A stretch of DNA of 64,000 bases from assembly GCA_963823915.1 (NCBI GenBank), contig CAWGNJ010000006.1, positions 82,225 through 146,224 of the forward strand. The letters run 5' to 3'. Under the pieces are notes generated by a model. That model did not search any database, was not told where the DNA came from, and saw only the letters and a list, made by a program, of their open reading frames with translations. Position 1 is the stretch's first letter; each line of letters opens with the position of its first letter. The position numbers were made by a program, and so were the translations under genes. Source of the DNA: an uncultured Actinomycetota bacterium. Its GTDB lineage: Bacteria; Actinomycetota; Acidimicrobiia; Spongiisociales; UBA4744. Positions 38,122 to 63,821 of this stretch are shown in pieces.

Positions 38122-38203
38122 CCCACATGTTTCGCAAGACCAAATGGCGACCACCAAGAGTAGTGATCACCTTGATGCGGGTAGGCTGCCAGGCTAACCG
38201 AGA

Positions 38204-38836
38204 TTGAATGACATGAGTGATCAGCACAGACCAGGAGAGCAAACCGGCCACCATCAGGGTCAGTTTGTCGTGATCGTGGGCCCGGATGGAGTGGGGAAGA
38301 CCACAGTGGCTCGGGCGCTTATCGCCGCGGCCGGGCCGCCCACCGGATACTTCCACTTCCGTCCGGTGGTCTTCAGCCCGATGCTCGATGCGCCACCTGA
38401 GTCCATGGACCCGGCGATCGACAAGGGGTCTTCAGAAGGGTCGCGACTCTTGGGTTGGGTCCGGATCGGACGCAACCTGGTCAGATTCTGGGCCGGCTAT
38501 CTCATGCGGGTTCGGCCGGCGGTTGCCAGGGGGAGCCTTGTGATCGGTGACCGTTGGGCCTATGGCTATTTGGTACAACCGGCGGCCCTCAAGTTCTACG
38601 GTCCGGCATGGTTGGCCCGGTTGGCGGTGCGGCTGCTCCCGGAGCCCGATCTCGTTGCCAACCTCATCGCACCGGTCGACGTGGTTCGCAACCGCAAACA
38701 GGAATTGACTGTGGCAGAGATCTCGGCCGAACTGACGGCCTGGAGACGGCTCCCCGCCCGCCATCTTCGTGATTTCGATACTCAGGGCAGACCGGATCAA
38801 ATCGCTGCGCGGATTCTTGAGGAGTTGGGACGATGA
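38204..38836 (+). CDS. small P-loop NTPase/kinase-like protein
   Basis: Walker [19 protein letters not shown]. 210 aa. A 4-nt overlap with the downstream APH-like kinase gene indicates an operon. Confidence 0.5.
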
Positions 38837-46029: not shown

Positions 46030-46259
46030 CCTCAGGGCAATCGGGGTCTGGTGCGTTGGGATTCGTGAATCGCAATCCGGGTTGGGGTAGCCCCGAAACT
46101 CCTCTACGATGCCGGCAAGCGTTCGCGCCTTGGGCGCACGGCGGTACGGGCCGCCTGGATGCTGAGATGAGAGCTGGCCCCTTCGTGGTTGTCGAATGGT
46201 CCACGCTTCGGCCGTCAGGTCTGGGAATACCTGAATGGCTTTGCTGAGGGAGGCATTTC

Positions 46260-48240
46260 GTGTCACGGCAATTGCATGGCACACATAGGGACGGTTTTGT
46301 TGCGGCTATTCGACGCGGGAAACACCGTGCGCACTTCTGGACAGCGGTGGAGCGGCGACTATTGGCCTTGACCGTGGTTCTGGCTTTGGCGATGACTGCC
46401 CCCGCTATCGTCGCAGCCTCCACCGACACTCCATCCCCGGTTGCGGGGGTTGCGGTCGATCGTGACACCTCGAGCCCCCGGGTCGCCAGGCCTCTGGCAG
46501 CGGATCCCGCTGATCCAACCGCGGACGTCGTTGCCGCTCCCGATACTCCCGCAGATCCTTCCGTTGATGACGCGGTCGGCGATGGGCGGCTCCACCTCCA
46601 CCGAGGCGGTTGCGGAGTCATCGACCACCACGATTGGCCCGGTTCGGGGTGCTTTGGTGGCGGGGGTTCCGACGACGGTTCCGACGACGGTTCCGTCTGG
46701 GTATCGGTTGACGTGGTCGCCGAATATGGGCGACTTTTTGTCGGGGCAGCCGTTTACGAATGGGGTTCATGTTCCGTATGACGAGTTCTTTGTGTTTTTG
46801 GCGCCGCAGAAGGCTTCCTCGGTTACGTGGACTTCGGATAACGGGTCGTGGGTGTATCGCGATGATGGGTATCCGTGGCGGGTTTGGCCCGGCGGCGCCC
46901 AGATATGGAAGATGGAGCCGGGTCAGCATGTGTTGACGGCCACGGTTGACGGGTCGGTGACGATCAGCGTCCGCTACACAATGGGAGCGTCCCTGCAGGG
47001 CGTGCTGGCTGCCAATCGCCTTCCGACCTACCCGGGTTCGTCGGCGATCGCAACGCAGTCTGCATCGGCCGGCACGTCAACGGCTTCTCAGAGTTCGCCG
47101 CCGGTGACGACTACGACGACGAGGCCGCCGGTGACGACTACGACGACGAGGCCGCCGGTGTCGACTGTTGGTGGGGTGGCGGTGTTTCCTGGTGATTCGA
47201 TTCAGGGGTTGGTGAATTCGCATCCGGGGGGGACGACGTTTGTGATTAAGGCGGGCGTGCATCGGCGTCAGCAGGTGGTCCCGAAGGATGGTGATTCGTT
47301 TATTGGTGAGCCGGGGGCGGTGTTGTCGGGTGAGGGGGTTACCGAGTTCGCGTTTGGTGAGGGTGGTTCTGGGGTGACGGTGCGGGGTTTGGTGATTGAG
47401 AAGTATGCGTCGGCGGCGCAGAAGGCGACGGTGCGGCCGGGTGGTGGTGCTGAGGGTTGGGTGGTTGAGGGTAATGAGATCCGGTACAACGGGGGGATTG
47501 GGTTGAAGGCCGGGTCGTTGTGGACGGTGGTGGGGAACCATATTCACCACAATGAGCAGTTGGGGTTGGCTGGGGCTGGTGGGCAGATTGTGGTGGATGG
47601 CAATGAGATTGCGTTCAATAACACTGCTCATTACGACCCGTATTGGGAGGGTGGTGGCACCAAGTTCATTCATACCAACAATTTGGTGGTGCGGAACAAT
47701 GTTGTGCATGACAACTATGGGCCGGGGTTGTGGTCGGATGGGAACAACCGTTACACCCTGTATGAGGGGAATCGGGTGTATGACAATTTCGGGCCGGGGA
47801 TCTTTTATGAGATCAGTCATGATGGGGTGATCCGGAACAACGTTGTGGAACGGAACGGGTTTGGGTATGAGGGGTGGGTGGACGGCGCCGGGATTCTGGT
47901 GGCGACCTCACCGAACGTTGAGGTGTATGGCAATACGGTTCGTTACAACAACGATGGGATTGCTGGGGTGCACACGGATCGGAGTACGTCCAATAGTGTC
48001 TATGGGCCGTATGCGTTGAAGAACCTGTGGGTGCACGACAACGTGATCGCCATGAATGTCGGTCAGAGTGGGGTAGTGACCAACTTCGATAATGCGGTGT
48101 TCTCGGCGGCCTACAACAACCGATTCGACAACAACACCTACACCCTCGGGTCGGCCTCCAAGTACTACCGCTGGCAAGCCGGTGAGATCACCACCAGCCA
48201 ATGGAAAGCCACCGGAAACGACGCCCACAGCACCTGGTAG
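46260..48240 (+). CDS. secreted parallel beta-helix repeat protein, paralogue 2 (signal peptide, D/P-rich region, beta-sandwich domain, TTTTRPP linkers, beta-helix), with a frameshift near 46593
   Basis: Signal peptide RRLLALTVVLALAMTAPAIVAAS is in frame 46260. GGSTSTEAVAESS...GYRLTWSPNMGDFLSGQPFTN...beta-helix is in frame 46441. The C-terminal ~1.1 kb is nucleotide-identical to paralogues 1 and 3 (the antisense track ORFs are identical). Confidence 0.75.
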
Positions 48241-48469
48241 CCGGATTCGTTTCCTTTTCCTCGTTTCTCCTTGTCCTTCTCTCTCACACGGCTCGAGATC
48301 GCCGGCTGAGATCCCCATTGGACTGAACCTCGTTCTTCGCTCTTTTGGGGCGATGATCCACTCAACCCAGGTATTGCCAGGCGTATAGGTCTAAAGGCCT
48401 ATGCCGGAGTGCCGATACCTCTCGAACGGTCTGGGACGCATCTGAGCTAGCCAATATCGGGAGGATGAA

Positions 48470-50401
48470 GTGGAAACCCTCAGGAGAACCGGGATGGCGC
48501 TTGTCGTCATTGCCGCGCTGGCAATCCCAGCCGTCTCAGTAATCGGTGGTTTCGAGGAAGCTGCCCCCCAAGAGTTTTCAGCAGAACAGCCAATCGCGTC
48601 GGGGCAAGTGGGCCAGGCGGCCTCACGAGCCGGTCAGCCTGCTGATGACCTGCCCGTCGCACTTGATGAGCTTCCTAATGTGGAAGACCCGGCTTGGGTT
48701 CCATCGGTGACAGTCGATGGGACTACCTCTTCGACTACCTCTTCCTCCACCTCCACCGAGGCGGTTGCGGAGTCATCGACCACCACGATTGGCCCGGTTC
48801 GGGGTGCTTTGGTGGCGGGGGTTCCGACGACGGTTCCGTCTGGGTATCGGTTGACGTGGTCGCCGAATATGGGCGACTTTTTGTCGGGGCAGCCGTTTAC
48901 GAATGAGGTTCATATTCCCTATGACGAGTTCTTTGTGTTTTTGGCGCCGCAGAAGGCTTCCTCGGTTACGTGGACTTCGGATAACGGGTCGTGGGTGTAT
49001 CGCGATGATGGGTATCCGTGGCGGGCTTGGCCCGGCGGCGCCCAGATATGGAAGATGGAGCCGGGTCAGCATGTGTTGACGGCCACGGTTGACGGGTCGG
49101 TGAAGGTCACAGTCCGCTACACAATGGGGGCGGGAACCAAGCCGCCGGTCGCGACAGCTGCGACACGATCGTCTTACAGCTCTCCGGCGACGACTACGAC
49201 GACGAGTCAGCGGTCGAATCCGCCGGCAACGACTACGACGAAGCCGCGGTCGAATCCGCCGGTGACGACTACGACGACGAGGCCGCCGGTGACGACTACG
49301 ACGACGAGGCCGCCGGTGTCGACTGTTGGTGGGGTGGCGGTGTTTCCTGGTGATTCGATTCAGGGGTTGGTGAATTCGCATCCGGGGGGGACGACGTTTG
49401 TGATTAAGGCGGGCGTGCATCGGCGTCAGCAGGTGGTCCCGAAGGATGGTGATTCGTTTATTGGTGAGCCGGGGGCGGTGTTGTCGGGTGAGGGGGTTAC
49501 CGAGTTCGCGTTTGGTGAGGGTGGTTCTGGGGTGACGGTGCGGGGTTTGGTGATTGAGAAGTATGCGTCGGCGGCGCAGAAGGCGACGGTGCGGCCGGGT
49601 GGTGGTGCTGAGGGTTGGGTGGTTGAGGGTAATGAGATCCGGTACAACGGGGGGATTGGGTTGAAGGCCGGGTCGTTGTGGACGGTGGTGGGGAACCATA
49701 TTCACCACAATGAGCAGTTGGGGTTGGCTGGGGCTGGTGGGCAGATTGTGGTGGATGGCAATGAGATTGCGTTCAATAACACTGCTCATTACGACCCGTA
49801 TTGGGAGGGTGGTGGCACCAAGTTCATTCATACCAACAATTTGGTGGTGCGGAACAATGTTGTGCATGACAACTATGGGCCGGGGTTGTGGTCGGATGGG
49901 AACAACCGTTACACCCTGTATGAGGGGAATCGGGTGTATGACAATTTCGGGCCGGGGATCTTTTATGAGATCAGTCATGATGGGGTGATCCGGAACAACG
50001 TTGTGGAACGGAACGGGTTTGGGTATGAGGGGTGGGTGGACGGCGCCGGGATTCTGGTGGCGACCTCACCGAACGTTGAGGTGTATGGCAATACGGTTCG
50101 TTACAACAACGATGGGATTGCTGGGGTGCACACGGATCGGAGTACGTCCAATAGTGTCTATGGGCCGTATGCGTTGAAGAACCTGTGGGTGCACGACAAC
50201 GTGATCGCCATGAATGTCGGTCAGAGTGGGGTAGTGACCAACTTCGATAATGCGGTGTTCTCGGCGGCCTACAACAACCGATTCGACAACAACACCTACA
50301 CCCTCGGGTCGGCCTCCAAGTACTACCGCTGGCAAGCCGGTGAGATCACCACCAGCCAATGGAAAGCCACCGGAAACGACGCCCACAGCACCTGGAAATA
50401 A
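48470..50401 (+). CDS. secreted parallel beta-helix repeat protein, paralogue 3 (intact: signal peptide, beta-sandwich domain, T/P linker, beta-helix)
   Basis: 643-aa intact ORF with a signal peptide, a ~130-aa domain shared with paralogue 2, three TTTT(R/K)P repeats, and a beta-helix identical to paralogues 1 and 2. Confidence 0.85.
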   Translation: METLRRTGMALVVIAALAIPAVSVIGGFEEAAPQEFSAEQPIASGQVGQAASRAGQPADDLPVALDELPNVEDPAWVPSVTVDGTTSSTTSSSTSTEAVAESSTTTIGPVRGALVAGVPTTVPSGYRLTWSPNMGDFLSGQPFTNEVHIPYDEFFVFLAPQKASSVTWTSDNGSWVYRDDGYPWRAWPGGAQIWKMEPGQHVLTATVDGSVKVTVRYTMGAGTKPPVATAATRSSYSSPATTTTTSQRSNPPATTTTKPRSNPPVTTTTTRPPVTTTTTRPPVSTVGGVAVFPGDSIQGLVNSHPGGTTFVIKAGVHRRQQVVPKDGDSFIGEPGAVLSGEGVTEFAFGEGGSGVTVRGLVIEKYASAAQKATVRPGGGAEGWVVEGNEIRYNGGIGLKAGSLWTVVGNHIHHNEQLGLAGAGGQIVVDGNEIAFNNTAHYDPYWEGGGTKFIHTNNLVVRNNVVHDNYGPGLWSDGNNRYTLYEGNRVYDNFGPGIFYEISHDGVIRNNVVERNGFGYEGWVDGAGILVATSPNVEVYGNTVRYNNDGIAGVHTDRSTSNSVYGPYALKNLWVHDNVIAMNVGQSGVVTNFDNAVFSAAYNNRFDNNTYTLGSASKYYRWQAGEITTSQWKATGNDAHSTWK

Positions 50402-50450: not shown

Positions 50451-52421
50451 TCAGTTTGGGACGAGTACCGCGACTGTGATCGATTCCGTCCGGGTTGACC
50501 ACCCGTCTCCGTAGGTCTGTCCCATCCAATCGACTGTCGTCCTGCCGGCGGGTCCGGCATATAGGACGGCACACGGAGCCTCGGCCGCGGCAGGATCGTA
50601 TGCCGCACTGGATTCGTTTGCCACGGCAATCGACGACAGGCGAACATCGGGGTCGCGGTCCTGCAGCAGGACCCAGAAGGGGTATTCCCACGGGGACTCG
50701 GTGGGTGATTCGTCGAACAGGAGGCCGACATTCGAACAGCCAAGCTCGGCTGTTCGATCAACCGCTTCCAGATACCCGCTCATCACATCCGGGCGACTCA
50801 TGAAGTAGAGATCGGTCCGGTTGAGTGTGAAGACGTTCTCGATGACTCCTTCGTCGATAGCACGACTGTTGGCCACGATCGGTCTGGTTTCGTTGAACAG
50901 GAGAAAGGGCAAAGCGCCTACCAGCAGGAGGGCGGCAATCAGCCCGGACACTCTTGCCGATCTCCAGCGACCCATCCGGGTGCCCAACCAGGGTGCCATC
51001 AGCAGGAAATAGGGAAGGTGCAGGCGTGCTCCCCAGATTTGCCACCGGAAGGCGAGCGAGAAGAGAAGCAGCGCCGCGCTTGCCGCCGCGAGGTACGCCC
51101 ACTGCACCGACTTCCCCGGCTCGGAGCGTCGAAAGTCCAATAGGAAAGCGCCCACCGCCGCCCCGATGAGAATCACCGCCACCGCGTTTCCGGCGAATTC
51201 CTCATGGTTGATGAGGGTGGGGAGGTCGAAGTCGGTTAGAGAAGTCCGCCGATCGTTGATTTCGACCCCGAGGGCTCCGTTGACTGCCGTGGCTGCCTCA
51301 ATCAGCTTGGTGTTGATGGATCGGATCGGGGTACTGAATTGGAGAGCTGTGTTCTTGACCAGATTGGCCAGGTAAAGGGGAGCGCTGAATGCCTGATTGC
51401 TGAACACATTGCTTCCGGCGGTTATCCCCAGGGGCGTCGAGAACATCGACAGGTTGCGAAGGTAGTGCCCGGCGTTGACTACCAGGGCAATTGATCCCAT
51501 GGCCGCCCAAGGTTTCCATGCCTTCCACTTGAGCCGTTTCAGGTCCGACGCCACAAACCAAACGAGAAAAGGGAAGGCGTATACGTAAGCCGTTCCCTTG
51601 GTGAGAATCGCCAGACCGACGCTTGCCCCCAGAAAGACGAGGTCAGCCCGATTCGTGGATTCGACTATCCGGCGGTGTAAGCCGAAATAGACAAGGCAGA
51701 GCAGCCAGAACCCCACCGTCAGGTCGTTCTGCGTGCTGGAAGCCTGAAGAATGCCCATTGGCAAGGTTGCCGCGACGACCGCGGAAAGGAGCTGACCGCG
51801 CCGGTTCGCTCCCAGCAGACCGGCCAGGGCGGAGACTGCGAAGACACTGCCAACCAAGGCGGACCATTGCACGAGATTGACGAGCCGGTCGCCGCCACCA
51901 AGGGAAATCAGGTGGCTGATGGTGAATTCCGCCCAAGGATTCTGGAACAGGTTCTGCAGGTAGTGGGTCGGGTAGTGCTCGACGCTGCCTTGTTGCAACC
52001 AGTTGACGACCCGAGCCAGGTGATAGGCCATTGAGTCCCAGTTGTTGGGCGGGGCGAAGATCGCTATGAACCCGGTGGTGCCCGCGATTACCAGCAGCCC
52101 GAAGTAGGACAACCGTTCGCCCCTGGAGAGGCCCTTCCTGGGAAGAAACGAAAAGCGGGGTAGCTTCTTCAGGTGCCGACGCTGTGCGGCAACTGCCAGC
52201 AGAACTACGGTGATCAGAAACCAGCACATGGCGATCCACAGCGTTTTAAGGGCGTGGGCCGTGCTGAGGAACTCAGTTATGGCGACTACCGACAATCCCC
52301 AAAGCACGGCCGCCCGCAGCAAAGCATCCCGAGCCCCGGTTTCGGGGCGGTATAACACCTGGACCAGCAAGATGCCCGGAATAAGAGCGATGAGGGCAAA
52401 CACGGGGGCATCGTCGCCCAC
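50451..52421 (-). CDS. GT-C fold membrane glycosyltransferase (ArnT/PMT-like, GT39/GT83 family)
   Basis: 656 aa with 12 or more TM helices, a large periplasmic C-terminal domain, and an N-terminal loop FAPPNNWDSMAYHLARVVNW of the DxD-like type seen in PMT/ArnT-family enzymes. Confidence 0.6.
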   Translation of the reverse strand: MGDDAPVFALIALIPGILLVQVLYRPETGARDALLRAAVLWGLSVVAITEFLSTAHALKTLWIAMCWFLITVVLLAVAAQRRHLKKLPRFSFLPRKGLSRGERLSYFGLLVIAGTTGFIAIFAPPNNWDSMAYHLARVVNWLQQGSVEHYPTHYLQNLFQNPWAEFTISHLISLGGGDRLVNLVQWSALVGSVFAVSALAGLLGANRRGQLLSAVVAATLPMGILQASSTQNDLTVGFWLLCLVYFGLHRRIVESTNRADLVFLGASVGLAILTKGTAYVYAFPFLVWFVASDLKRLKWKAWKPWAAMGSIALVVNAGHYLRNLSMFSTPLGITAGSNVFSNQAFSAPLYLANLVKNTALQFSTPIRSINTKLIEAATAVNGALGVEINDRRTSLTDFDLPTLINHEEFAGNAVAVILIGAAVGAFLLDFRRSEPGKSVQWAYLAAASAALLLFSLAFRWQIWGARLHLPYFLLMAPWLGTRMGRWRSARVSGLIAALLLVGALPFLLFNETRPIVANSRAIDEGVIENVFTLNRTDLYFMSRPDVMSGYLEAVDRTAELGCSNVGLLFDESPTESPWEYPFWVLLQDRDPDVRLSSIAVANESSAAYDPAAAEAPCAVLYAGPAGRTTVDWMGQTYGDGWSTRTESITVAVLVPN

Positions 52422-52441
52422 CGACCGCCGTCACGCAAGGA

Positions 52442-53578
52442 CTAAATGAGTTCGAGAAGAGTGGCCACATACGCCTCGTATGTGTGGTGTGACCGGATGT
52501 AAGCGGGACCGGCTTCGAGAGCTCCTTTCTGAAGGGAGGCGAGGCGACCGCGGCTGGACTCAAGGCTGGTTGCCAGGGCACCGGGCTCATGCGAAGCTGC
52601 CACGACAGCGCCCGGATAGTCGGGCGGCAATTGGTCTTGAAGGGTTGGTGTCGTCAACAGCGGAATCCCCGCGCCAAGACCCTCGAGGAGTACGCCCGAC
52701 GCGCCTCCGTCGTCGCCAAAACTGGCTCGGTACGGCAGCACCAACAAGGAGGCTTCCGCATAGTGCCGGCGGAGCTCTTCGTCGTTCACGAATCGATCGA
52801 TCCATTGGACCCGGTCCATCGGGAATCGAGCTTCCAGGTCCCGGCGCACATCTGGTTTCTGCTTCCCGACAATGTCGAGTGACCACAGCGACTGCGTGTT
52901 CTGTATTGCCTCGAGAAGAACTGGCAAGCCTTTTTCGGAACGGGCTTGTCCGACAAAAAGCAGGCGGGGAGTTCCCGCGGGAGCATTGCGGGGCGGCTCC
53001 GGCGTCGACTGAGACGCTGAGGTCACCGGATACGGCTGGGCAGTGATCCGCTCTTCCGAAACAAACCCTGAAAGCACATCCTTCGCACGATTCGTGTGGA
53101 CCACGACTCGGGCGCTCCGTCCGGTGAGGCGGGCCAGGCGCCGCCGCAGAACGGCTGTACGGACCTTGCCGAGATTCGAGCGGTGGGCGTAGGTGTATTG
53201 ATGAGCATGGTGCAGCACATGGATTCGGGTTCTGGTTCGTTCGAGGGAGGAAGGCAAGGCCCAGACGTTCTTGTCAAGATTGAGTTCCCAGATGGAATCA
53301 ACGTCTTGGGTCTGACAGAGGGCGGCGACCCGATGGAGTTGCCGGCGGCCTTGCTTGACCTGGCGGAGACCGATGGTTGAGACCTCGAACCACGAGTCGG
53401 CCGGTTGGGTAGACAGGGAGGGCGGCTTGACAGGTGAGCAAGCCAGGACTTCCACGCCTGCCGCCAAGAGGGCTCGGGCGATCCCTTCCATGTAGCCGGT
53501 GTGGTGACCATCATCGACGTCGTCGTACAGGCACACTCTCACAATGGGAAACCTCGGTCGGAATTTCTCCGGGTCCAA
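52442..53578 (-). CDS. GT4-family glycosyltransferase
   Basis: GQARSEKGLPVLL; GGASGVLLEGLGAGIPLLTTP. Confidence 0.8.
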   Translation of the reverse strand: MDPEKFRPRFPIVRVCLYDDVDDGHHTGYMEGIARALLAAGVEVLACSPVKPPSLSTQPADSWFEVSTIGLRQVKQGRRQLHRVAALCQTQDVDSIWELNLDKNVWALPSSLERTRTRIHVLHHAHQYTYAHRSNLGKVRTAVLRRRLARLTGRSARVVVHTNRAKDVLSGFVSEERITAQPYPVTSASQSTPEPPRNAPAGTPRLLFVGQARSEKGLPVLLEAIQNTQSLWSLDIVGKQKPDVRRDLEARFPMDRVQWIDRFVNDEELRRHYAEASLLVLPYRASFGDDGGASGVLLEGLGAGIPLLTTPTLQDQLPPDYPGAVVAASHEPGALATSLESSRGRLASLQKGALEAGPAYIRSHHTYEAYVATLLELI

Positions 53579-53717
53579 AACTCGCTCAGCACGGGGCTAA
53601 TCGTCCTCTGTGGGCGTACGTTAGGCCTTTCGAATTTACACGCGAATAAATCTGAAGTACGGCGGCCAGTTTTCATGAGTCCAGACTTTCCCTTGCCCTT
53701 GTACGCAACGCGGTCGA

Positions 53718-53745
53718 ACAGCTATTCTGAGTGGTGGGAGGTTGT
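53718..53745 (+). promoter_or_regulatory. second copy of the CTATTCTGAGTGGTGGGAGGT motif, ~60 nt upstream of the GT2 start
   Basis: See 38091-38121. Confidence 0.3.
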
Positions 53746-53805
53746 TGACATACCGGGGCAATCGTCCTTCACTGAATACACCGCCAACCCAGGAGTTTCC
53801 ATCGT

Positions 53806-54781
53806 ATGACCCGCGACCCCACGTGCCAGCGTCGGCCTACCCGTCTACAACGGTGAGGCATTCATCGCCGACGCACTTGATTCGGTGCTCGCTCAGACAT
53901 TTGACGAGTGGGAAGTGATCATCTGTGACAACGCCTCGACTGATGGGACGGCAGAGATCTGCATGGCGTATGTCGAGAAGGATGAGCGGATTCGTTACTA
54001 CCGAAACGAAACGAATCTGGGCGCATCGAAGAACTACGAGCGTACCTATGAGTTGTCGAGTGGCGAGTACTTCTGTTGGTTGCCATCTGACGATGCAATG
54101 GAACCCGATTTCCTAGCTCGTTGCGTCGACATGCTGGACAACGACCCTGAGGTTGTCAACGCGTTTTCGCAATACCTCATCAGGAGCGGCACGGATGCCC
54201 CGGTGTCCCATGAGATCAGTCTTGACTCGGACATGCGGTTTGTGTCGACGTACCAAAGGGTGAGGAAACTGTTTCGCGAGCGCATCATCGGTCCCAACTG
54301 GCCCATGTTCGGGGTATACCGCTCGAGCATTCTGAAGGACACAGGTCGCCTCCGGCCGATGATCGGAGCGGACGATTATTTGACACTCGAAGTGGCGTTG
54401 ATGGGACAAGTCGGGCAGGTACCGGAACAGCTGTACGTGATCCGAACCCATCCCGATGCATGGCACGTAGCCCGGGAGTCCAAGGGCAAGGGGCTGCTGG
54501 CAAGGTTGCTGGGGACGGAGACTGTCTGGGCAGCCGCCTGGTTCGATCCGGCCAATGAGAAAATGCGGGTGGTTTTCCCGCATTGGCGGCGTCTGCAAGT
54601 GTTTGCCAGCCTGATTATGCGTTCCAAGACGGGTTTTGGCGAAAAGCTGAAGATGCTCGGATTGTTGCCCGTGTACGCCGTTCAGCACTGGCGCCGACTC
54701 GCCAAAGAACTTGTCGGTGGTGTAGCCCAGTTGATCGTCGTTCCGCTTCGAGCCCTGAAGAAGTCGCCGACCCCGTCCTAG
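53806..54781 (+). CDS. GT2-family glycosyltransferase, with an N-terminal frameshift near 53822
   Basis: ATG at 53806 gives MTRDPT, then the reading shifts to SVGLPVYNGEAFIADALDSVLAQTFDEWEVIICDNASTDGT...WLPSDD (DxD). Confidence 0.8.
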
Positions 54782-56302
54782 CTTGGTAGATCGGCGTCAA
54801 CGACGGCTTTCGGCCGTTCAGTCCGACGTCGACGTGCGCAATCCCGAACTTGGGGAAGAGGCCGCCAGGGGCGTACCCGAGGTATCTGTGGGCGCCGAGA
54901 ATGGCGACGAAATACACGCCCGCGCCGAGAACAGGTGCCCATCCCAGCATCCACCCGCTGTCGAGGTCAGGAACCCAGTTCTTGACCAAGGTGAGAACAC
55001 CCAGCATGAGCATTGCACTTGCGGCGGGGACCGCCAACGGGCGCAGGAGCGTCGCTGGTCGGGCTTGCAGAATTCTCGTCGCCACATAGAGGCCGACGAC
55101 AAAAGGAATCGCGGCGACGACGGTCGCCCAGGCCGCTCCGCGGATGCCCCACATGGTTGTAAACGGATAGATGAAGATGGCAAGCAGGACCACTGTTGCG
55201 GTCCACAGAATCGTATTGATGTAGGGCTTGCCGACGCCGTTGAACAACGGGTCCGTGGTGCCGGCTACCGCCCTGACCAGACCCCAAATCAGCAATACCT
55301 CGTAGGCGCCGAGGAGTGGCAGCCACTCGTCGGGTAGAAAGACTCCGACCGCGGTCGGGCCCAGAAACCACAGGCCGGCGGTGATCGGCATGGCCACAAG
55401 CGCGACCAATTGGAGAGCCTGTAGATAGGCGCCCCGGAGTTTGGGCAGGTCTCCCTGCAACTTGGACAGAGCCGGGAAAGCCACATCGTTGACGACGCCG
55501 GCGATCTGCTCGGTGATCAAGGCAGAGATCGTGAAGGCCATCTGGTAGAGCGCGAGGTCCTCGGTACTCAGTACCCGACCTACGACGATGTCGTCGAGAT
55601 TGAGCATCAGGAAGACCAGGATCATGGAGCCAAGAATCCAACTTCCGAACCGCACGAGATCCATCGTCTTCTCGCGATCGAAGCGGAGCCTCGGTCGGTA
55701 CCTGTGAGCGACGTATGAGCCGATCGTCATGGTCAACTGGTTGGCTACCCGCCCGAGTACCAGGGCCCACACGCTTTGCAGCAGGATGGCGGCGGTCACC
55801 GCCACAACCAGATCGACGACGTGCGGCAACGATCGATACACAAAACGTTGTCGGAACTGGAGTTCTTTGTCGAAGAACACGACTCCGATGTTGTTGAGAC
55901 CGTTGAGAAAGACCACCAGAGCTAGAGCGCGGATCACGTTCGCCGCCGCGTCCGTTGTGAAAGAAGGTCGCGATCAGCGGTGCGCCTGCCAGCAGGATGA
56001 CTGCCAGGATGACACCGCGGATCACCGTAATGGTCCAAGCGACATCGAGGTGATCCTTGATGTCGCCCTCGCGCTGAACCAAGGCCTGGCTAAAACCCGT
56101 CGTAGTGAAGGTCTCGAGGAGGGCGAGCGTTAGAAGAGCGATTCCCATGAGTCTCGACCTCGCCCGTCCCCAGGAAATTGGCCACGACGACGAGTCGCAC
56201 GATTCGCAACGATTTGGTGAGGCCGCTCAGGGCAAACGCCCAGAACCCGGCGTTGGCCGTGCGGCTCCTGAGCGAGTCACCTGGATGGAGGACCCACTGC
56301 AC
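54615..56302 (-). CDS. Wzx-type polysaccharide flippase (MOP/MATE superfamily), with 2 frameshifts; true 3' end probably near 54.88 kb
   Basis: Three frames carry consecutive Wzx segments: ANAGFWAFALSGLTKSLRIVRLVVVANFLG, then MGIALLTLALLETFTTTGFSQALVQR, then ALALVVFLNGLNNIGVVFFDKELQFRQRFVY, followed by more TM helices. The C-terminal ~80 residues look out-of-frame. Confidence 0.7.
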
Positions 56303-56357
56303 GACCCGGCGGACTTTTCCGGTGGGTCGCGTCGTCGCCGGTTCAGGGTGCGGGGAC

Positions 56358-57023
56358 TCAGGCACTGTGGTGACCTGATCCCAGCACCACCTTTTCACCG
56401 TAGAAAGCTTCGGCGAAGCCACTTTCCGCCCGGCACTCAACGCCGCGCACCCGCATCAAGGCTCCGAAGGTCTCGGAGGTGAACCAGTACTTCTCATGTT
56501 GGGAAGCGAAAGCGTCGAGCAGATTGGTCGCCTTGCGGTCGGCGTTTTCGGCATCGATCGGCATGTAGATGTTCGGGGAGCCCAATCCGCCGTCATATTT
56601 GAGGATCTCGTACTGGAGGATCAGGTTCTTGCGGAACGTCTGGGCCGTCACCTCGGAGATCAGGCGGTGATCTTGATGCAGGTCATCTCGCCAGTGCGTG
56701 AATATCACATCCGGGTCAATCTCCGGTGACAGTTCACGGAACCGTTCCTTGATCTCTCGGAAGGAATTGGGGAAGAACCCGTCCTCGAAGTCGAAAACTT
56801 CAATGGATGCCAGTCGGTCGCCGGCGAATAGGGAGGCACTGCGCCGGGCCTCGGCGTGACGTTGGCCTGCGGCGCTGAAGACCCTCCAGTGCACGGAAGC
56901 TCCCGGGAGGTCGTTGAGGAGTTGCAGCAAGGTGGCGCCGCAACCGATCTCGATGTCATCGCTGTGGGCACCAAGGCAGAGAATGGAAGGGCTTTGAGTG
57001 TCCAACTGAAGATGTCCCACCAC
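56358..57023 (-). CDS. PIG-L/LmbE-family N-acetylglucosaminyl deacetylase
   Basis: ILCLGAHSDDIEIGCG (HxDD zinc site). Confidence 0.75.
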   Translation of the reverse strand: MVGHLQLDTQSPSILCLGAHSDDIEIGCGATLLQLLNDLPGASVHWRVFSAAGQRHAEARRSASLFAGDRLASIEVFDFEDGFFPNSFREIKERFRELSPEIDPDVIFTHWRDDLHQDHRLISEVTAQTFRKNLILQYEILKYDGGLGSPNIYMPIDAENADRKATNLLDAFASQHEKYWFTSETFGALMRVRGVECRAESGFAEAFYGEKVVLGSGHHSA

Positions 57024-57030
57024 TGGTCCC

Positions 57031-57821
57031 TCAATCCCCGTTGCGCGGGTTCCACACCTGCCACGGTGCCGTTCCCGATGCGTGTAGTTGGTCGAGCCGC
57101 TGCTTGTCTTTGAATGTATCCATTGGAGCCCAGAAACCCGTGTGCCGGTGGGCATACAACTGGTCGGCAGTGATCAAACGTTCGAATGGCTGTTCAACCA
57201 GTTCTTCGCCTTTCTCCATGTAGTCGAATGTCTCTTGCTTGAGTACGAAGTAGCCGCCGTTGATCCAGAAACCCGCCTTGCTGATCTGGTGGGTATCCGT
57301 CACCCGGCCGAGGTCGTCGATCTCCACCGTGTGGTAACTCCCCGGTGGAGGTACGGCCACGAAACCGGCTACTTTGCCTGAGCTCTTGAAGGCGTCGAGG
57401 TAGTCGGGAAGGTTGAGGTCGGTGACGCCGTCGGCATAGTTGGCCATGAACATCTCTTCACCCTCAAGATGAGAACGCAAGCGAACCAGACGTTCCCCGA
57501 TGTTCGATCTGGCACCGGTATCGACGAACGTTATCTTCCAGTCGTGAATGTCGCTGTTCGCCAGGTCGATCTTCTTTCCGCCCTCTGAGAATACAAAGTC
57601 GTTGGACGCTGTCTCGTCGTAGTTGAGAAAGAAGCTCTTGATAGCGTCGGCTCGGTAGCCAAGGGCCAGAATGAACTCCTTGTGCCCGAAGTGGGCGTAG
57701 TACTTCATCAGGTGCCAGAGGATTGGGCGGTATCCGACGGGCACCATCGGTTTGGGGATTGTCTCGGAGTACTCGCCGAAGGCGGGTGCCTTCCCCTCCG
57801 CAAAAGATCACCACCTTCATG
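57031..57821 (-). CDS. rfbF: glucose-1-phosphate cytidylyltransferase, with a frameshift near 57783
   Basis: MKVVIFCGGEGTRL N-terminus in one frame; EYSETIPKPMVPVGYRPILWHLMKYYAHFGHKEFILALGYRADAIKSFFLNY... is RfbF/DdhA-specific. Confidence 0.8.
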
Positions 57822-59115
57822 AGGTCTTCTCCCAGTTCGGGTAGGTGCACTGCTCCTGCCAGAGGCGCCATCCGACGGAGTCGGCCGGGGTGTCAATGTC
57901 GGCCATGGTCAGGGGTTGGTCTTTGGCGATGGGCCTCACCACTTTGCATCGATCGGTTAGTCCCTCGGGCACGAGATCCTCGGCGCGGGCTTGCAGGCTG
58001 TTCTCCATGATTCCATAGACCGTGAAGCCGCCGATCCCGTCCAAGACGTCACCGGGTTGAAGGTCCTTTTTGGCGTACGCGATCACGTCTGTCACCGGGG
58101 CACCGAGCGGGGTCATGGCCGCATCGCCGAATATGGCCGCCCGGGCGATTGTGACCGGAGTCTCGAGCGGTCCGAGGTGGGACGGCACGTAGAACGTGTA
58201 GAGCGGGCCCTCGCCCATCTTGTACACCTTCATGTACCGCTGCATCCACTTCTCGTCGTTGTAGCCCAGCACGAATACTCCAAAGCTCGGTTCGGCTCCG
58301 AGGATGTAGTCGACATAGCCGGGGCCGTTGATGAGTTGTTCTGATCGAACACATCGGGAGCCTCCTCAACTCGACTACAGCGAGGCCCGTGCATGCCCGC
58401 GGGTCATGACCCCGAATCCGGTGCCGTTGGCCAAGGTGGCCATCTCGAAGGCGATCTTTGACCCGTCGGCGAAGCTGGTGATCATCTTGGGGCGTTGCCA
58501 CACGTTCTTGGCAAACTCCGCCTGGGTCTCGGGGGTCCGGTAGTAGTCGAGCAACGACTTGATGTTGCCGAGCAAAACCGGTCGGAAACCCAACGTCTTG
58601 ACCTGGCGCATCAGATTCATCAGGACTGCCGGTTGGTCGCCATCCATATCGGTCAGCACCACCCCGGCTGCGTCCGCTTTGGTCTTGAGGATTGGGCCGA
58701 GGGTGGCGTCCAATTCGGCGTTGACCAGCACGATGTGCTTGCGGGCCTCGATGCCGGCCAGCACGACCCGGGCGGCATGTTCCACCTCACCGGTGGCGTC
58801 GACCAGCACATCGGTTCCGGGAGCGGAAGCCGCCATGACCGGATCGGTCGTTACGGCCAGTTGGCCGGCGGTTATCGCAGCTTGCAGCGCAGTTTCGTCT
58901 TCAACGACGACGTAGTCCGCGATCTCCAAATTGGAGAGGGCCTGCTCGATTGTGGCCATGGTGCGGTTGGCGATGACCGACAAGCGGATCCCGGGGGTTG
59001 GTCGCTTCAGCTGGAGAATCAAACCTTGGGCCGCAAAACCGGCGCCACTCAATACGACCCGGATCGGGTTGCCCGCCGCTTCCCGTTGTTGGAGTGCTTC
59101 GTCGATGATGATCAT
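57817..59115 (-). CDS. NAD(P)-binding oxidoreductase with C-terminal SAF domain (COG4091-like), split in two frames
   Basis: N-terminal Rossmann VVLSGAGFAAQG in ORF 58375-59115. The C-terminal SAF-like region is in ORF 57817-58272. The overlap implies a frameshift near 58300-58375. Confidence 0.55.
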
Positions 59116-59667
59116 GGCTTCCTTCCTTCGAGCCGGGACATGAAATCCGGCCAGCTCAAGTCTTTCTCAGAGACGATCACACCGTCGGTGATCGGCCACT
59201 CGATACCAAACGACGGGTCGTCCCAGCGAGCTCCGATTTCTACTCCCGGCTCGAACGGAGCGGAGGCGGTATAGATCACTTCGCTGTTGTCCTCGAGAGC
59301 CTGATAGGCGTGGGCGCACCCGGCCGGAACGGCCATCGCCAAGCGATTGTCGGGCGAAAGCTCTACACCCGTCCATCGAAGGTAGGTTGGTGAGCCCGGG
59401 CGTACGTCGACACAAACGTCAAAGACCCGTCCGGCGATACAGCGCACGAACTTGGCCTCCGGGTACGGATCCGGGCGCCAGTGCAGGCCTCGGATCATTC
59501 CTGACTGGTTCGATTGAGACATGTTGATCTGGGCGATGTGGCCGTCCACTCCTGCCTGCGCCATCTCGTCGGCGCACCAGGCGCGGGCGAAATAGCCACG
59601 CTCGTCCGTGAACGGCTCCAGTTCAACGATCCGGCAGCCTTCAACCTCGGTCGGAACGAACTTCACG
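59112..59667 (-). CDS. NDP-4-keto-6-deoxyhexose 3,5-epimerase (RmlC/RfbC-like cupin)
   Basis: GTG start giving MKFVPTEVEGCRIVELEPFTDERGYFARAW...GLHWRPDPYPEAKFVRC...VSEKD. Confidence 0.75.
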
Positions 59668-60705
59668 TCATACCCGCCAGAAGAATTGATCGTCGATCTG
59701 ACCGGTCTCGAGCAGATACTGGATCTGCTTGAGACGCCGATGCCGCCGCGAAGTGAGGAATCGAAGAGTCGAACTCGACACGATCGAAGATCTCGCGGAG
59801 CTCGGCGACCCCTTGCGGACATCCCAGTCAGCCGAGAACCCGGGTAGATTGGGTGTTGATCTTGTCGAAGTCGACGCGATAGTTGCGGGTGTCGCCGCCC
59901 ATGTTCGCCGATCATGACCTCACAACCGGGTATCTCCTCGCCGATGATCGTGCAGATGTCGCGCACCTGATAGTTGGCCCGGGAGTCCCCAACATTGAAG
60001 GCTTCGGCTCGAACGGCGTCGGCGGGTGCTTCCATGGCGCAGATCATCGCCCGGGAAATGTCTCTGATGTGAACAAACGGCCGCCAGGGGGTTCCGTCGC
60101 TCTCCAAGACCAGCTTGCGGTCCAGGTAGGCCATGGCCGTCAACTCATTGACGACGAGGTCGAAGCGCATCCGCGGGCTGGCGCCAAAGGCCGTGGCGTT
60201 CCGCAGAAACACGGGGGTGAAAGAGTCGTCGGCCATTGGGCGGAGATCGTTCTCGACTTTCACTTTGCATTTGGCGTATGCCGTGATCGGGGCGGTGGCG
60301 GACTGCTCGTTGCTCAATTCGTCGCTTTCCCCGCCGCTGGCGCCGTACACGCTGCACGAGGACGCATAGACGAACCGTTCGACTCCGGCCTGCTTTGGCC
60401 ATTTCGGCGAGCCGGACGGTGCCTCGATGGTTGATTTTGTAGGTGAGTTCGGGGTCGAGTTCGCCGACCGGATCGTTGGAGAGGTCCGCGAGATGAATGA
60501 TGGCATCGAACCCTTCGAGTTGGCGGGGTTCGGTCAGCCGGGTGTCGAGACTGCGCCATTGCGGAGCAGCCTCGACGCCGTCGTAGAGCCATCCGACCCG
60601 GTGGTAGCCGGCGTCGTAGACGTGGACATCATGCCCTTGCTGCAGCAACTTCGGCCCCAGTACCGTGCCGATGTAACCCTCACCCCCGGTCAGCAATACC
60701 TTCAT
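59664..60705 (-). CDS. NAD-dependent sugar epimerase/dehydratase (extended SDR), C-terminal third scrambled by frameshifts
   Basis: MKVLLTGGEGYIGTVL (GxxGxxG), then ERFVYASSCSVYG...YAKCK (YxxxK) in a second frame. The C-terminus RRLKQIQYLLETGQIDDQFFWRV-stop overlaps the RmlC start. Confidence 0.65.
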
Positions 60706-60788
60706 TCGTAGTCCTCCCTGGTCTGCACAGATTCATGTGCTTGTTCTTTTGACAAAACAATCCGGCGTCCCCAACGCCACCCAAGCTG

Positions 60789-60986
60789 ATGGACCGGCCA
60801 GGACGAGGCCAACCCACTGAAAGCATAGGCGCAGTGATGCCTCCCAATGATTCGATCCCAACGACCACTCGGAGTGGTCAATCCGGTTCCAGCCTAGACG
60901 ATTCTGGCCGCTCTGGAAAGAGCCAACCGGTGCCAAGGCAACCGCGTAGCAGCGCGCACAGGGTAAGGTGTGGCCACGCGCTATGA
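60789..60986 (+). CDS. small ORF (65 aa) translationally coupled (ATGA) to the B2 gene: candidate RiPP precursor, low confidence
   Basis: Stop TGA overlaps ATG 60983 of the downstream gene. Contains ...IPTTTR|SGQSGSSLDD..., which is Thr at -2 and Asp at core position 9 if cleaved after R. However, the composition (R/P/S/G-rich) is also compatible with a spurious high-GC ORF, and there is no clear RBS. Confidence 0.25.
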   Translation: MDRPGRGQPTESIGAVMPPNDSIPTTTRSGQSGSSLDDSGRSGKSQPVPRQPRSSAHRVRCGHAL

Positions 60987-61387
60987 CAGAAAGATCCAGG
61001 CTTCCGCTTCCCGACAAATTCCGGCTCCTAGTTCGGATCTGGACGTCGTATGCCATGGTTTTGGCTCGATCCCGTCGACCTCTTCCGAGACAGATGCAAG
61101 CCCTGGGAAACAAACCCGGTCGACGCCCTCTCCCGGTGGGTTCCGACAGATTGGGCAGGGCCATTCACCGCGGCCTCAGATTCGGTCCTATTGCCCCGCG
61201 CTGTCTGCCGAAGGCGATGGTCATGTTCGAGATCCTCAAGGAACAGGGTGAGGCCCCGGAACTGGTGATTGGCTTGCCCGACCAGGCCAGCAGTCACGAG
61301 GCGCACGCCTGGGTAGAACTGGATTCGATCGATGTGGGTCCGCCCCCCGGACGGGCCGGTCATGACGAAATGGTCAGATACTCATAG
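60968..61387 (+). CDS. lasso-peptide B2-type transglutaminase-like cysteine protease (PF13471 family)
   Basis: APRCLPKAMVMFEILKEQGEAPELVIGLPDQASSHEAHAWVELD carries the Cys...His-x-AWVE catalytic signature of B2 proteases. About 135 aa. Confidence 0.65.
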   Translation: MWPRAMTERSRLPLPDKFRLLVRIWTSYAMVLARSRRPLPRQMQALGNKPGRRPLPVGSDRLGRAIHRGLRFGPIAPRCLPKAMVMFEILKEQGEAPELVIGLPDQASSHEAHAWVELDSIDVGPPPGRAGHDEMVRYS

Positions 61388-61480
61388 TGGTTCAGGGAAC
61401 TCGAAATGAAAAAATGACCCGAGATCGAGTACATTTGGCGCTCAACAATCGGGAGGGTTGATCTGATCGCCGATACCGCT

Positions 61481-61756
61481 GTGGTGGTGCACAATCCGAG
61501 AGCGGAATACCGCGGACTCGATGAGGGCGGTTTATTGACCCAATTGGACACCGGCCAGCACCACGGCCTCAATCCGGTCGGAGCATTGATCTGGTCGCTG
61601 ATCGACGGCCAGACATTCACAGAACTGGTTGAGGCCGTCAGGGGTCATCTGTCCGAACCGCCCCCTGAACTAGTCGAGGACATGGCTGAATTCATCGAAG
61701 CGATGAGAGGGCGCAAGTTGGTCGACGTGACCGAGCCAGAGTCGCCGCTGAATTAG
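61481..61756 (+). CDS. PqqD-like RiPP recognition element protein (lasso B1-like)
   Basis: YRGLDEGGLLTQLDTGQHHGLNPVGALIWSLIDGQTFTELVEAV fits the PqqD/RRE pattern (...LN.vGa.IW.l.dG..t..el...). Confidence 0.6.
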   Translation: MVVHNPRAEYRGLDEGGLLTQLDTGQHHGLNPVGALIWSLIDGQTFTELVEAVRGHLSEPPPELVEDMAEFIEAMRGRKLVDVTEPESPLN

Positions 61757-62886
61757 TGGCACGCCCACACCCCGCCCTGATCGAACTCGCTGCCAACCGG
61801 GCCTTGCCTCCGATCGGTGATCTTGCGGGGTTTCTGGGCTCCGCTCTCGAACACAGGATGATCGGCCTCGTGTGGAATCGGGTAAAAGCAGGCGAATTGG
61901 TGCTGGAGCCCGACGATCACCGAAATCTGGCTGCCGAGAGCCTCAAGACTGAGTTTCGCCACCACCAACTGTCAGCGGCGCTCAGCCGTGCCAGTGAACG
62001 CCTCTTGGAGAAAGGTATTGAAGTTGCGACGTTCAAGGGGGTGGCGGCCGAACAACGATGGTATGACCAGGTGGGCGATCGTCCCTGTTGGGACGTCGAT
62101 CTGTTGTTGGCCCCGCACAACCTCGACCGGGCGGGCGAACTGATTGAGATCCTCCAACCCAAAATGCGAAACGACGGACGGCTCCAGCGACTCGTTGACT
62201 CCGGAGCTCTGCAGACCATTGACATCGAGTTTGACGGTGTCGTGCTCGATCTCCATTTCGATCTCTTCAAACTTGGGTTTCGAAGCCGCCAGCAGAAACT
62301 GCTCTGGGAGCGAAGCTTGATGGTGTCTCTACCGGGGGGAGAATCCGTCCGCGCTCTAGATGGGGAAATCTCGCTGATCTTCTCGCTACTCCATCTCAAT
62401 CGAGACCGATTTGCCAAGCTCCTGGGCTTTGCCGAAGTGGTGCGGATAGTCGAACGCCAGGAAATTGACTGGGATTTCGTTGAGGCATTCGTGGAGGTAG
62501 AGGGTCTGGAGACTTCACATCGGTTGGCTCTCGGCGTTGTCTGCGAAACGTTGGGGATCGAACCTCCTGTACCCGTCGCCACGGCCGGTTGGCGAAGCAA
62601 GGCGTGGAGCGCATTGTGGCCACCTGAGCAACGGTTGTTGGGAGAAGAAGGCCGGCTCAGCTTCGGACGCCGGAGCGTCCTGGCGTTTTCCTTCCTTGTT
62701 CGAGGTCGGAAAGGCGACGCAGCTCGGTACGTACTGAGGCGTATGTTGCCGAATCGCGACATGGTCGATGTGGTTCACCCGGGCACCCAGGGCCCCTACC
62801 TGTGGCGACTGGTCAACGCTCGAGTCGGCCAGCGGATGAAAAGAAGGCGTGAGCGAAGGGCTCTCGAGCAGGCCAGGGGGTCCTGA
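61756..62886 (+). CDS. PF14907-type nucleotidyltransferase-family protein (the class often co-located with lasso/RiPP clusters)
   Basis: 376 aa. ATFKGVAAEQRWYDQVGDRPCWDVDLLLAP is an NTase G..D.D motif. The start overlaps the B1 stop. Confidence 0.6.
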   Translation: MARPHPALIELAANRALPPIGDLAGFLGSALEHRMIGLVWNRVKAGELVLEPDDHRNLAAESLKTEFRHHQLSAALSRASERLLEKGIEVATFKGVAAEQRWYDQVGDRPCWDVDLLLAPHNLDRAGELIEILQPKMRNDGRLQRLVDSGALQTIDIEFDGVVLDLHFDLFKLGFRSRQQKLLWERSLMVSLPGGESVRALDGEISLIFSLLHLNRDRFAKLLGFAEVVRIVERQEIDWDFVEAFVEVEGLETSHRLALGVVCETLGIEPPVPVATAGWRSKAWSALWPPEQRLLGEEGRLSFGRRSVLAFSFLVRGRKGDAARYVLRRMLPNRDMVDVVHPGTQGPYLWRLVNARVGQRMKRRRERRALEQARGS

Positions 62887-62901
62887 GGGGCGGGCCCGGG
62901 T

Positions 62902-63821
62902 TTAGTGAGCGCCCCGGCCCGACCACACAGCCGGCATGGTCTGGGCGAGAAGCTTCAATTCCAGACCCAAACCCCAGTTCTGGATGTATTCAAGATCCAT
63001 CTCTACCCAGGTGTTGAAGTCAACGTCGGATCGACCACTCACCTGCCAGATACATGTCAGACCAGGCTTGGCGAGGAGACGTTGGAACTCCCAATCGCCG
63101 TACTCCTCGACCTCGGACGGAATAGGCGGCCGGGGACCCACCAGGCTCATTCTTCCGGCCAGCACGTGGAAGAGCTGAGGGAGCTCATCGAGGCTCAGCT
63201 TACGAATCAGTTTCCCCACTGGCGTGATCGGGTGTTCGCACGAATCTTGAAGATCGGCCCATCCGCCTCGTTGACATCCTGAAGGTCGGTCAGCCAACTA
63301 TCGGCGTCCATCTTCATGGAGCGGAACTTGAAGAACCGGAATGGAACACCGTGGCGCCCGATGCGCTCGCTCACGTACAACAGAGGTCCGGGCGAGGTGA
63401 CTGCAATAGCCAGCGCCGTGATGACAAACAAAGGAGAGAAAAGCAAGATTGCGACCAGGGCCCCGACGATATCGATCAAGCGCTTCGCTCGCGGTTTCCA
63501 CACCGGAGCCGAGAGAGGCCGGGCGGTTTCGTCGAGAAACAGTCGTGTATCGACCTCGACCGGCTCGGTTCCCTGACGCAGGTCGATGACGACGTGAAGG
63601 TCGTCGACTCTTGGATCTGTTTCAGGATCGATCGCCTCTTCGGCGACCTCTTGATGCAGCCTTAGCCCCCCGAGAACCTGATTTGGCTCGGAGAATGCCG
63701 CCCCTTCGGATGTCATTTCATGCCCCTTTGGGCCCTGGCGGGCCGCCTCCCTTATGTTGTCCAACCGCACGATCGGTAGCGGCCTGTCGGTGTCTGGCAC
63801 CGACTCCCCATGGCCAACCAC
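62902..63821 (-). CDS. polyprenyl-phosphate glycosyl-1-phosphate transferase (bacterial sugar transferase, WbaP/PglC-like), with a frameshift near 63250
   Basis: RLIDIVGALVAILLFSPLFVITALAIAVTSPGPLLYVSERIGRHGVPFRFFKFRSM in one frame; LDELPQLFHVLAGRMSLVGPRP (signature) in the other. Confidence 0.8.

Follow-up and report, generated by a model that had tools for sequence, protein, structure and literature searches.

What is a set of lasso peptide-type genes doing in a surface-polysaccharide locus that holds no lasso cyclase? The question is raised by a 64-kb stretch of DNA from an uncultured member of the Actinomycetota (hereafter the window, meaning the whole stretch), in which a B2-type protease, a PqqD-like recognition element for ribosomally synthesised and post-translationally modified peptides (RiPP recognition element, RRE; the B1-type component) and a nucleotidyltransferase (NTase) of the PF14907 family follow one another on the plus strand. 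Comparison with homologous loci indicates that this module is a conserved, monophyletic and reduced derivative of fuller clusters, and not a product of decay. We favour, at a probability of about 0.5, the reading that the trio is the 'RRE plus leader peptidase plus NTase' sub-module of phosphorylated or glycosylated lasso clusters and of linear polyphosphorylated peptide (LPP) clusters, forming here a reduced RRE-guided peptide system.

Three intact genes in a conserved order

The module consists of the following genes:

60983 to 61387, plus strand: B2-type transglutaminase-fold cysteine protease, homologue of the lasso leader peptidase (134 amino acids (aa); ATG at 60983)
61481 to 61756, plus strand: PqqD-like RRE, B1-type (about 89-91 aa; PF05402)
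61756 to 62886, plus strand: PF14907 (NTP_transf_5) NTase (376 aa; GTG start)

Profile hidden Markov model (HMM) searches gave each of the three proteins a significant match to the family that an initial annotation, made from the letters alone, had named for it. B2 matches PF13471 (E=2e-13) and the NCBIfam model NF033537, lasso_biosyn_B2 (44.5 bits against a cut-off of 33), and carries the predicted H-x-AWVE signature in the form HEAHAWVE. The RRE matches PF05402 (E=1.6e-11) and the NTase PF14907 (E=4e-26), and the coordinates of the open reading frames (ORFs) agree with the co-directional order B2, B1, NTase that had been described. Among solved structures the RRE comes nearest to TbiB1, itself a lasso RRE (E=9.6e-8); against the NCBIfam models made specifically for lasso PqqD proteins it scores below cut-off. 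Sequence searches of the PDB with the NTase and with B2 returned no informative match. The AlphaFold2 model of the NTase (predicted local distance difference test score 93) has a fold like those of MenT1, ANT(2'')-Ia and CCA-adding enzymes; the search with this predicted model identifies only the generic Pol-beta NTase fold. Across 32 homologues G95, D113xD115 and D165/H167/D169 are invariant. No record was found for the exact NTase protein of the window, and a 342-aa version (P0001) leads to contig L001.

The longest B2 frame runs from 60968 to 61387, with the GTG at 60968 as an in-frame alternative start. We take the conserved ATG at 60983 as the start, because the protein aligns from there with the MNKPKRRP of locus L002, where an in-frame stop sits four codons upstream. 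The putative start of PqqD falls in three successive GTG codons (61481-61489), and a GTG is found at this position (VHNP) in 9 of 10 orthologous loci. A stretch reading GRVDLIADTAV (61418-61489), 5′ of this putative start, is also kept across loci, with no canonical start there in the window or in L001. The PqqD stop codon overlaps the GTG of the NTase (TAGTG).

None of the three genes is disrupted in the window, and their frames are identical to those of L001, a Joint Genome Institute metagenome contig that is 99.3% identical to the window over 11.9 kb (window 51848-63801). The two sequences differ by 17 single-base indels and 68 mismatches. Around the module these indels break at least six known genes, encoding a flippase, an NTP_transferase, a DRL oxidoreductase, an RmlC-like protein, an epimerase and a Bac_transf protein, which are split or fused in the window and all intact in L001. 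Since the frameshifts are absent from so similar a contig they look like sequence errors, and the window probably carries indel errors; fresh pseudogenes are less likely.

In the protein collection 57 homologues of the NTase could be detected; those with a named source come from Acidimicrobiia. Scanning one genome per species gave 50 loci from Acidimicrobiia, Nitriliruptoria, other Actinomycetota and Dehalococcoidia. A fixed order of an epimerase gene pointing leftward, a conserved non-coding element, B2-PqqD-NTase pointing rightward and Bac_transf pointing leftward recurs in L001, L002, L003, L051, L056, L057, L059, L063 and L064, with a variant in L054. The triad is found in at least nine distinct Acidimicrobiia-type loci, so that the comparison proposed in the initial annotation did reveal conservation beside exopolysaccharide genes. 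Median ratios of non-synonymous to synonymous substitution rates (dN/dS) over 9-10 lineages are 0.14 for B2, 0.20 for PqqD and 0.18 for the NTase, and all 9 orthologues keep the Cys (PRCL), His (HEAHAW) and Asp (DVGPPPG) of B2 unchanged. Neighbour-joining groups the triad NTases in a single clade, which is nested within those of fuller clusters. The loci around those nesting NTases hold HprK-like kinases, RREs, ABC-2 exporters, Asn-synthase-type enzymes (best NCBIfam match, the lasso cyclase model NF033535) and short precursors, the last in three families with a YxxP leader, for example MKKPYRAPEFKAWGTVADLTKTG... and MTYEQPKIVDRTSVVGQLN.... It is because of the conserved order, the purifying selection and the nested clade that the module appears to be a reduced derivative and not a ruin. 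Fusion proteins occur among the homologues of the NTase at about 40% identity, with PqqD as the partner in P0048 and Peptidase_S24 in P0044 and P0033.

In L051, a locus from a long-read metagenome-assembled genome, the NTase is spread over at least five frames (9931-11153) beside intact B2 and PqqD genes; this is probably an assembly error, or else a pseudogene.

The partners that accompany these genes elsewhere were sought in the window with HMMs built from the related loci and with Pfam scans of the large ORFs. No Asn-synthase-like cyclase (PF00733/NF033535) was found in the 64 kb by either route, nor in the flanks of the triad loci, up to 10 kb on each side where retrieved. Two HprK-like kinase HMMs gave no match in the 64 kb; a single P-loop protein lies nearby (38204-38836), and it is dTMP-kinase-like and not HprK-like. 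Neither was an exporter found: the ABC-2 permease HMM had no match in the 64 kb, there was no ABC_membrane domain among the Pfam-scanned ORFs, and the sole, marginal P-loop match of the ABC-ATPase HMM (38198-38833, E=6e-4) is the same dTMP-kinase-like protein. A leader peptidase of the S24/S26, signal peptidase I-like (SpI-like) kind is absent from the module and from the Pfam-scanned ORFs of the window. Moreover, HMMs of the three precursor families run against six-frame translations of the window and triad loci had a best E of 1.4, and neither clustering of small ORFs across 52 loci nor a scan for [YW]xxPx[LVIFAM] yielded a precursor candidate in the window or in any triad locus. The lack of a cyclase and an exporter, first noticed in the immediate flanks, thus extends to the whole window, and the adjacent canonical cyclase and precursor that would make this an ordinary lasso biosynthetic gene cluster were not found in the 64 kb.

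A proposed reduced peptide system and its rivals

The nearest published parallels are the LPP clusters of Bacillota (Popov et al., Nat Commun 2026, PMC13381572). These are cyclase-free, lie within capsular loci and comprise a signal-peptidase-like leader peptidase, an RRE, an HprK kinase, an NTP_transf_5 enzyme (LppN, as assigned in Supplementary Data 2) and an exporter (PMC13381572). The module shares with them the lack of a macrolactam cyclase, a discrete PqqD-type RRE, a leader peptidase, an NTP_transf_5 enzyme and the setting in a polysaccharide locus. However, LPP clusters always come with an HprK-like kinase, an MsbA-like exporter and precursors with a YxxPxVL leader, and the module has none of the three. 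Their leader peptidase is SpI-like (S26/S24 clan) whereas that of the module is a B2 protein, and LPPs have been described as restricted to Bacillota (PMC13381572) whereas the module belongs to an actinomycetote.

A second parallel is provided by the paeninodin and pseudomycoidin clusters, which likewise have split B1 and B2 proteins, a PF13471 protease, a PF05402 RRE and often a place in polysaccharide loci; their NTP transferase, termed uncharacterised, has a DxD motif and an ANT(2'')-like fold and is sometimes fused to B2. PsmN, the pseudomycoidin enzyme and the sole family member with a phenotype, adds one or two hexoses to a phosphoserine of that lasso peptide, requires its DxD motif and has been modelled on ANT(2'')-Ia (PMC6993621). 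The NTase of the window carries PF14907 and D113xD115, and its model matches in fold the same ANT(2'')-Ia PDB entries as PsmN, the comparison with PsmN being by description. Nevertheless, the paeninodin-type clusters (A, C, B1, B2, K, N, D) include a precursor, a cyclase, a kinase and an ABC exporter, all lacking from the module, whose order is B2, B1, N. The canonical actinobacterial split-B lasso pair TbiB1/TbiB2 is a third point of likeness, as the RRE is closest to TbiB1 and B2 has the Cys-His-Asp triad, but what defines such systems is that a cyclase and a precursor stand beside B1 and B2, and here both are wanting.

Related also are the full lasso-type or LPP-like clusters of Acidimicrobiia, Nitriliruptoria and Dehalococcoidia (L012, L014, L017, L044, L045; L008, L027, L032, L065). 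They share the NTase family, at 36-49% identity, and also the RRE and B2 families, and frequently have Wzz/BY-kinase, flippase, Bac_transf and APH-like neighbours. They differ in holding HprK-like kinases, ABC-2 exporters, YxxP precursors and often cyclases, of which the triad clade has none. The module therefore belongs neither with the lasso clusters (no cyclase, no precursor), nor with the paeninodin type (no kinase, no exporter), nor with the LPP clusters (B2 in place of an SpI-like peptidase; no kinase, exporter or precursor).

LPP-like clusters are themselves present in Dehalococcoidia and Actinomycetota (L008, L009, L015, L018, L019, L026, L027, L028, L032, L034, L050 and L065), with an HprK-like kinase, a PqqD RRE, a PF14907 NTase (in some fused to Peptidase_S24) and often an ABC-2 exporter. 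Their precursors are short and start M(T/R)YExPxIV. In most of them no cyclase was detected; L008 has one about 5 kb away.

The initial annotation had allowed for an RRE-guided system tied to the surface polysaccharide that had not been described. This is partly anticipated by the LPPs, as cyclase-less clusters with an RRE, a peptidase, an HprK kinase and an NTP_transf_5 enzyme in capsule loci are already published (PMC13381572). What stands is the kinase-less B2 form: in the literature we found no description of a kinase-less, precursor-less version with B2 in Actinomycetota. The literature search met no papers on an 'HprK-related kinase', and it met PF14907 only in a phosphonate survey.

On the reading that we favour, the kinase, cyclase, exporter and precursor would have been lost in one Acidimicrobiia-type clade, or would never have stood near the trio there. 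The RRE would recognise the leader on a peptide or small protein whose gene lies in another part of the genome, and B2 would then cut that leader off. The NTase, docked on the RRE, would attach a group of nucleotide or sugar origin, for which the sugar nucleotides made by the divergent operon are the probable source, and the product would be linear and not a lasso. What ties the NTase to a peptide presented by an RRE is the fusion of its homologues to PqqD and Peptidase_S24, the overlap of the RRE and NTase genes, and the B2-NTase fusions seen in Firmicutes (PMC8498205).

Several points weigh against this. What the data show is the identity and intactness of the genes, their conservation under selection, the synteny, the reduction and the lack of local partners; the central step is inferred, no substrate peptide having been identified, and so are the nature of the substrate, the reaction and any tie to the glycan. 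PsmN acts on phosphoserine (PMC6993621), and the locus of the window has no kinase to provide one. LppN was inactive in a heterologous host, which leaves the chemistry of the family undefined; its authors suspect that a partner was missing or that the substrate is a rare one from the surrounding locus (PMC13381572). The window reaches only 1.1 kb 3′ of the module, so that the context downstream is that of the homologous loci. Lastly, the NTases of L013 and L021 have APH-like and flippase genes as neighbours, and the approximately 10-20 kb retrieved there contains neither an RRE nor a B2, a setting that allows a role for the NTase independent of any peptide.

Such a role is the possible, if unlikely, alternative that fares best. 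It would have the NTase move a phospho-sugar or phospho-alcohol from a CDP- or dTDP-linked donor to a polysaccharide or lipid intermediate, the B2- and PqqD-like proteins being accessory or regulatory. In all triad loci the module keeps the same place, with the nucleotide-sugar genes on one side and the priming transferase on the other; the NTase homologues of L013 and L021 adjoin APH-like, flippase and Wzz/BY-kinase genes; and no precursor was found in the 64 kb. The NTase model also weakly resembles FKRP, a CDP-ribitol phosphotransferase (fold-search ranks 24-40), but these matches are not significant (E>0.1). Moreover, B2 retains its full protease triad, a lasso leader-binding domain is the nearest relative of the RRE, and the fusions of the NTase with an RRE or a peptidase point to a peptide substrate.

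We consider it doubtful that the trio is one part of a split canonical lasso cluster, with the cyclase, the precursor and perhaps a kinase elsewhere, in which it would supply B1, B2 and tailoring in trans to a true lasso. B2 does score above the NCBIfam lasso_biosyn_B2 cut-off, complete lasso clusters that use this NTase family occur among related loci of the same classes, and our searches are confined to the window and the retrieved triad flanks. Yet no cyclase was found in the 64 kb or within up to 10 kb on each side of the triad loci with that flank, the loss of a neighbouring cyclase is common to the whole clade, and cyclase-less linear relatives are known in the LPPs (PMC13381572).

That the trio is left over from a lasso or LPP cluster in decay and has no present function is very improbable: kinase, cyclase, exporter and precursor are missing locally, frameshifts are many in its neighbourhood and the L051 NTase is fragmented, but the frameshifts are not in the 99.3%-identical L001, the three genes are intact with the frames of that contig, dN/dS is 0.14-0.20 across 9-10 lineages with invariant active-site residues, and the conserved synteny and upstream element further contradict the degenerate lasso cluster that the initial annotation had entertained.

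The upstream element and the surrounding locus

Immediately 5′ of B2 lie the following features:

60807 to 60982, no strand: conserved non-coding element, about 170 nt, separating the divergent sugar operon from the B2 operon
60821-33: element block AAGCATAGGCGCA
60839-45: element block GCCTCCC
60863 to 60879, no strand: perfect palindrome GACCACTC-G-GAGTGGTC, 8+8, inside the element and present in all triad loci
60894-902: element block CTAGACGAT
60939-58: element block CAACCGCGTAG(C)AGCGCGCA
60964-69: element block TAAGGT, 13 nt 5′ of the B2 ATG
60789 to 60986, plus strand: ORF of 65 aa (ORF65), judged no gene (indel-dependent; no family; frame not kept)

The element comprises seven conserved blocks in which nearly all positions are invariant, between flanking proteins that are 50-70% identical. 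With nhmmer it was recovered once per triad locus (E=1e-14 to 1e-51) and nowhere else in 65 loci or in the window. A metagenome scan with a two-block DNA pattern recovered one contig, identical to L056. None of the 4227 covariance models of Rfam 15 reached its gathering score in the window, and the only Rfam match at E<10 in 60650-61050, to a long non-coding RNA, is spurious.

Two readings of the element were weighed, and we consider the first somewhat more likely than the second. It may be a pair of divergent promoters with operator sites. The outermost blocks resemble -10 hexamers: block 1 in reverse complement is TATGCT, TAAGCT or TAGGCT, directed towards the sugar operon, and the last block is TAAGGT, TATGGT or TAGTCT, 13 nt (9-14 across loci) 5′ of the B2 ATG. 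The T-A-N-N-N-T positions are kept in both, even in the most divergent sequences. A scan of the intergenic region with the sigma-70 consensus found nothing. The palindrome has a near copy at 38101-38115, in a second divergent intergenic region of the locus, and another at 19845-19857; these copies may be operators of one regulator, the statistics being only suggestive. Near copies of the form ACCACT-N3-AGTGGT stand at both 38101-38115 and 38150-38164, between a GDP-mannose dehydratase gene (left) and the P-loop and APH-like genes (right), and the copy at 19845-19857 lies about 60 nt 3′ of an XRE/HTH_31 regulator gene (18964-19782).

Alternatively, the element may be a structured RNA leader. 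The stem of the palindrome is lengthened by differing complementary sequences in L002, L003, L051 and L063, a covariation across four loci, and these extensions use T:G pairs that are workable on the plus strand only. In an RNAalifold consensus of four sequences CCUCCC pairs with the GGG..UAAGG stretch next to the B2 start. However, only two short hairpins are left in the consensus fold of nine sequences, and neither strand gives a strong minimum free energy z-score (+0.6 to -2.8). A globally structured RNA was rejected on these grounds, the outer blocks fitting TANNNT -10 boxes instead. In the account that we favour for the module, its operon and the nucleotide-sugar operon share this conserved control region of about 170 nt.

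It is in this region that ORF65 lies. The initial annotation had seen in it a lasso precursor, its stop overlapping the B2 start as ATGA and its sequence dividing as TTTR|SGQSGSSLD, with Thr at -2 of the leader and Asp at position 9 of the core. Both the ORF and its overlap are present in the window as given, and only there. Relative to L001 the window has an extra A at 60935 and an extra C at 60950, both inside ORF65, which make its 3′ end; without them the frame continues into B2 as an ORF of 198 aa in L001. The extra C also breaks the block CGCGTAGAGCGCG, and no such base occurs in nine aligned homologous loci (eight distinct). These loci keep the DNA blocks in other frames, AAGCATAGG encoding ESIG in the window and KHR in L002, and 'TTTRSG' is itself encoded by the palindrome. 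The supposed leader and core are thus a translation of the conserved non-coding element, and the conservation of the small ORF on which the precursor idea depended does not extend to its frame. GC content by codon position in ORF65 is 0.61/0.67/0.55, lowest at the third position, whereas real genes of the locus have a low second position (0.38-0.51) and a high third (0.65-0.73). ORF65 had no family match in Pfam or NCBIfam-type profile searches, did not cluster with small ORFs of other loci and had no match to the precursor HMMs, and it lacks the YxxP leader motif carried by all three precursor families of the related loci. Because of the indels, the shifting frames, the codon composition and the lack of a family or leader motif, we rejected it as a precursor gene and give that idea next to no credence; ORF65 appears to be a misreading of a conserved control region. 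Genome mining should be cautious here, as precursor-like ORFs in high-GC intergenic DNA can come from indel errors together with conserved regulatory sequence.

The genes that flank the module and the element are:

59112 to about 59667, minus strand: RmlC-like 3,5-epimerase (PF00908; intact, 184 aa, in L001; frameshifted in the window)
about 59669-60705, minus strand: NAD-dependent epimerase/dehydratase (PF01370, PF16363; intact, 344 aa, in L001; frameshifted in the window)
62902 to 63821, minus strand: Bac_transf initiating phosphoglycosyl transferase (PF02397; convergent with the NTase; window copy split by an indel at 63228)

Pfam hits and the annotation of L001 agree with the initial placement of the module between nucleotide-sugar genes and the initiating transferase. 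The epimerase and RmlC-like genes (59112..60705) open the divergent minus-strand nucleotide-sugar operon, which also encodes a DRL oxidoreductase, an NTP_transferase, a PIG-L deacetylase and a Wzx flippase. Bac_transf is intact, at 271 aa, in L001, L002, L057 and L063. By Pfam scans 28-64 kb is a single large surface-polysaccharide locus, with Wzz/BY-kinase, WecG, several transferases of the GT4 and GT2 families, GDP-mannose dehydratase, Wzy, three beta-helix proteins and a PMT_2 transferase.

This setting invites a bolder version of the peptide reading, which we regard as quite unlikely. The RRE, B2 and NTase would have been co-opted for glycoconjugates, a nucleotide- or sugar-phosphate being added directly, from CDP- or dTDP-sugars of the adjoining operon, to a peptide or protein encoded elsewhere. 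The kinase step of known systems would be bypassed, and the product would serve as a peptide-linked primer, cap or anchor of the surface polysaccharide, with the control element, possibly as an RNA leader, regulating this process together with the supply of sugar nucleotides.

Two further features of the locus were observed. A dTMP-kinase-like P-loop protein and an APH-like phosphotransferase are paired at 38204-39732, and the same APH-like family stands directly beside a PF14907 NTase and a flippase in L013, L021, L033 and L045, hinting at a functional link within the glycan pathway. At 44608-50401 three right-handed beta-helix genes (473, 599 and 643 aa) lie in tandem and share an identical segment of at least 177 bp, seen in the out-of-frame ORFs at 45629, 47843 and 50001, which are identical; the repeat points to duplication or gene conversion in the recent past.

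A minimal form of a recurrent gene set

Lasso-type RRE, peptidase and NTase genes recur in capsule and surface-polysaccharide loci. Machinery like that of the LPP and paeninodin clusters occurs in Actinomycetota and Chloroflexota, beyond Bacillota. Within this wider range the triad clade is the most stripped-down natural form, an RRE, a protease and an NTase under selection. Being both minimal and bound to a sugar locus, it is therefore a clean system in which to ask what the NTase does and whether peptide and glycan are tied together.

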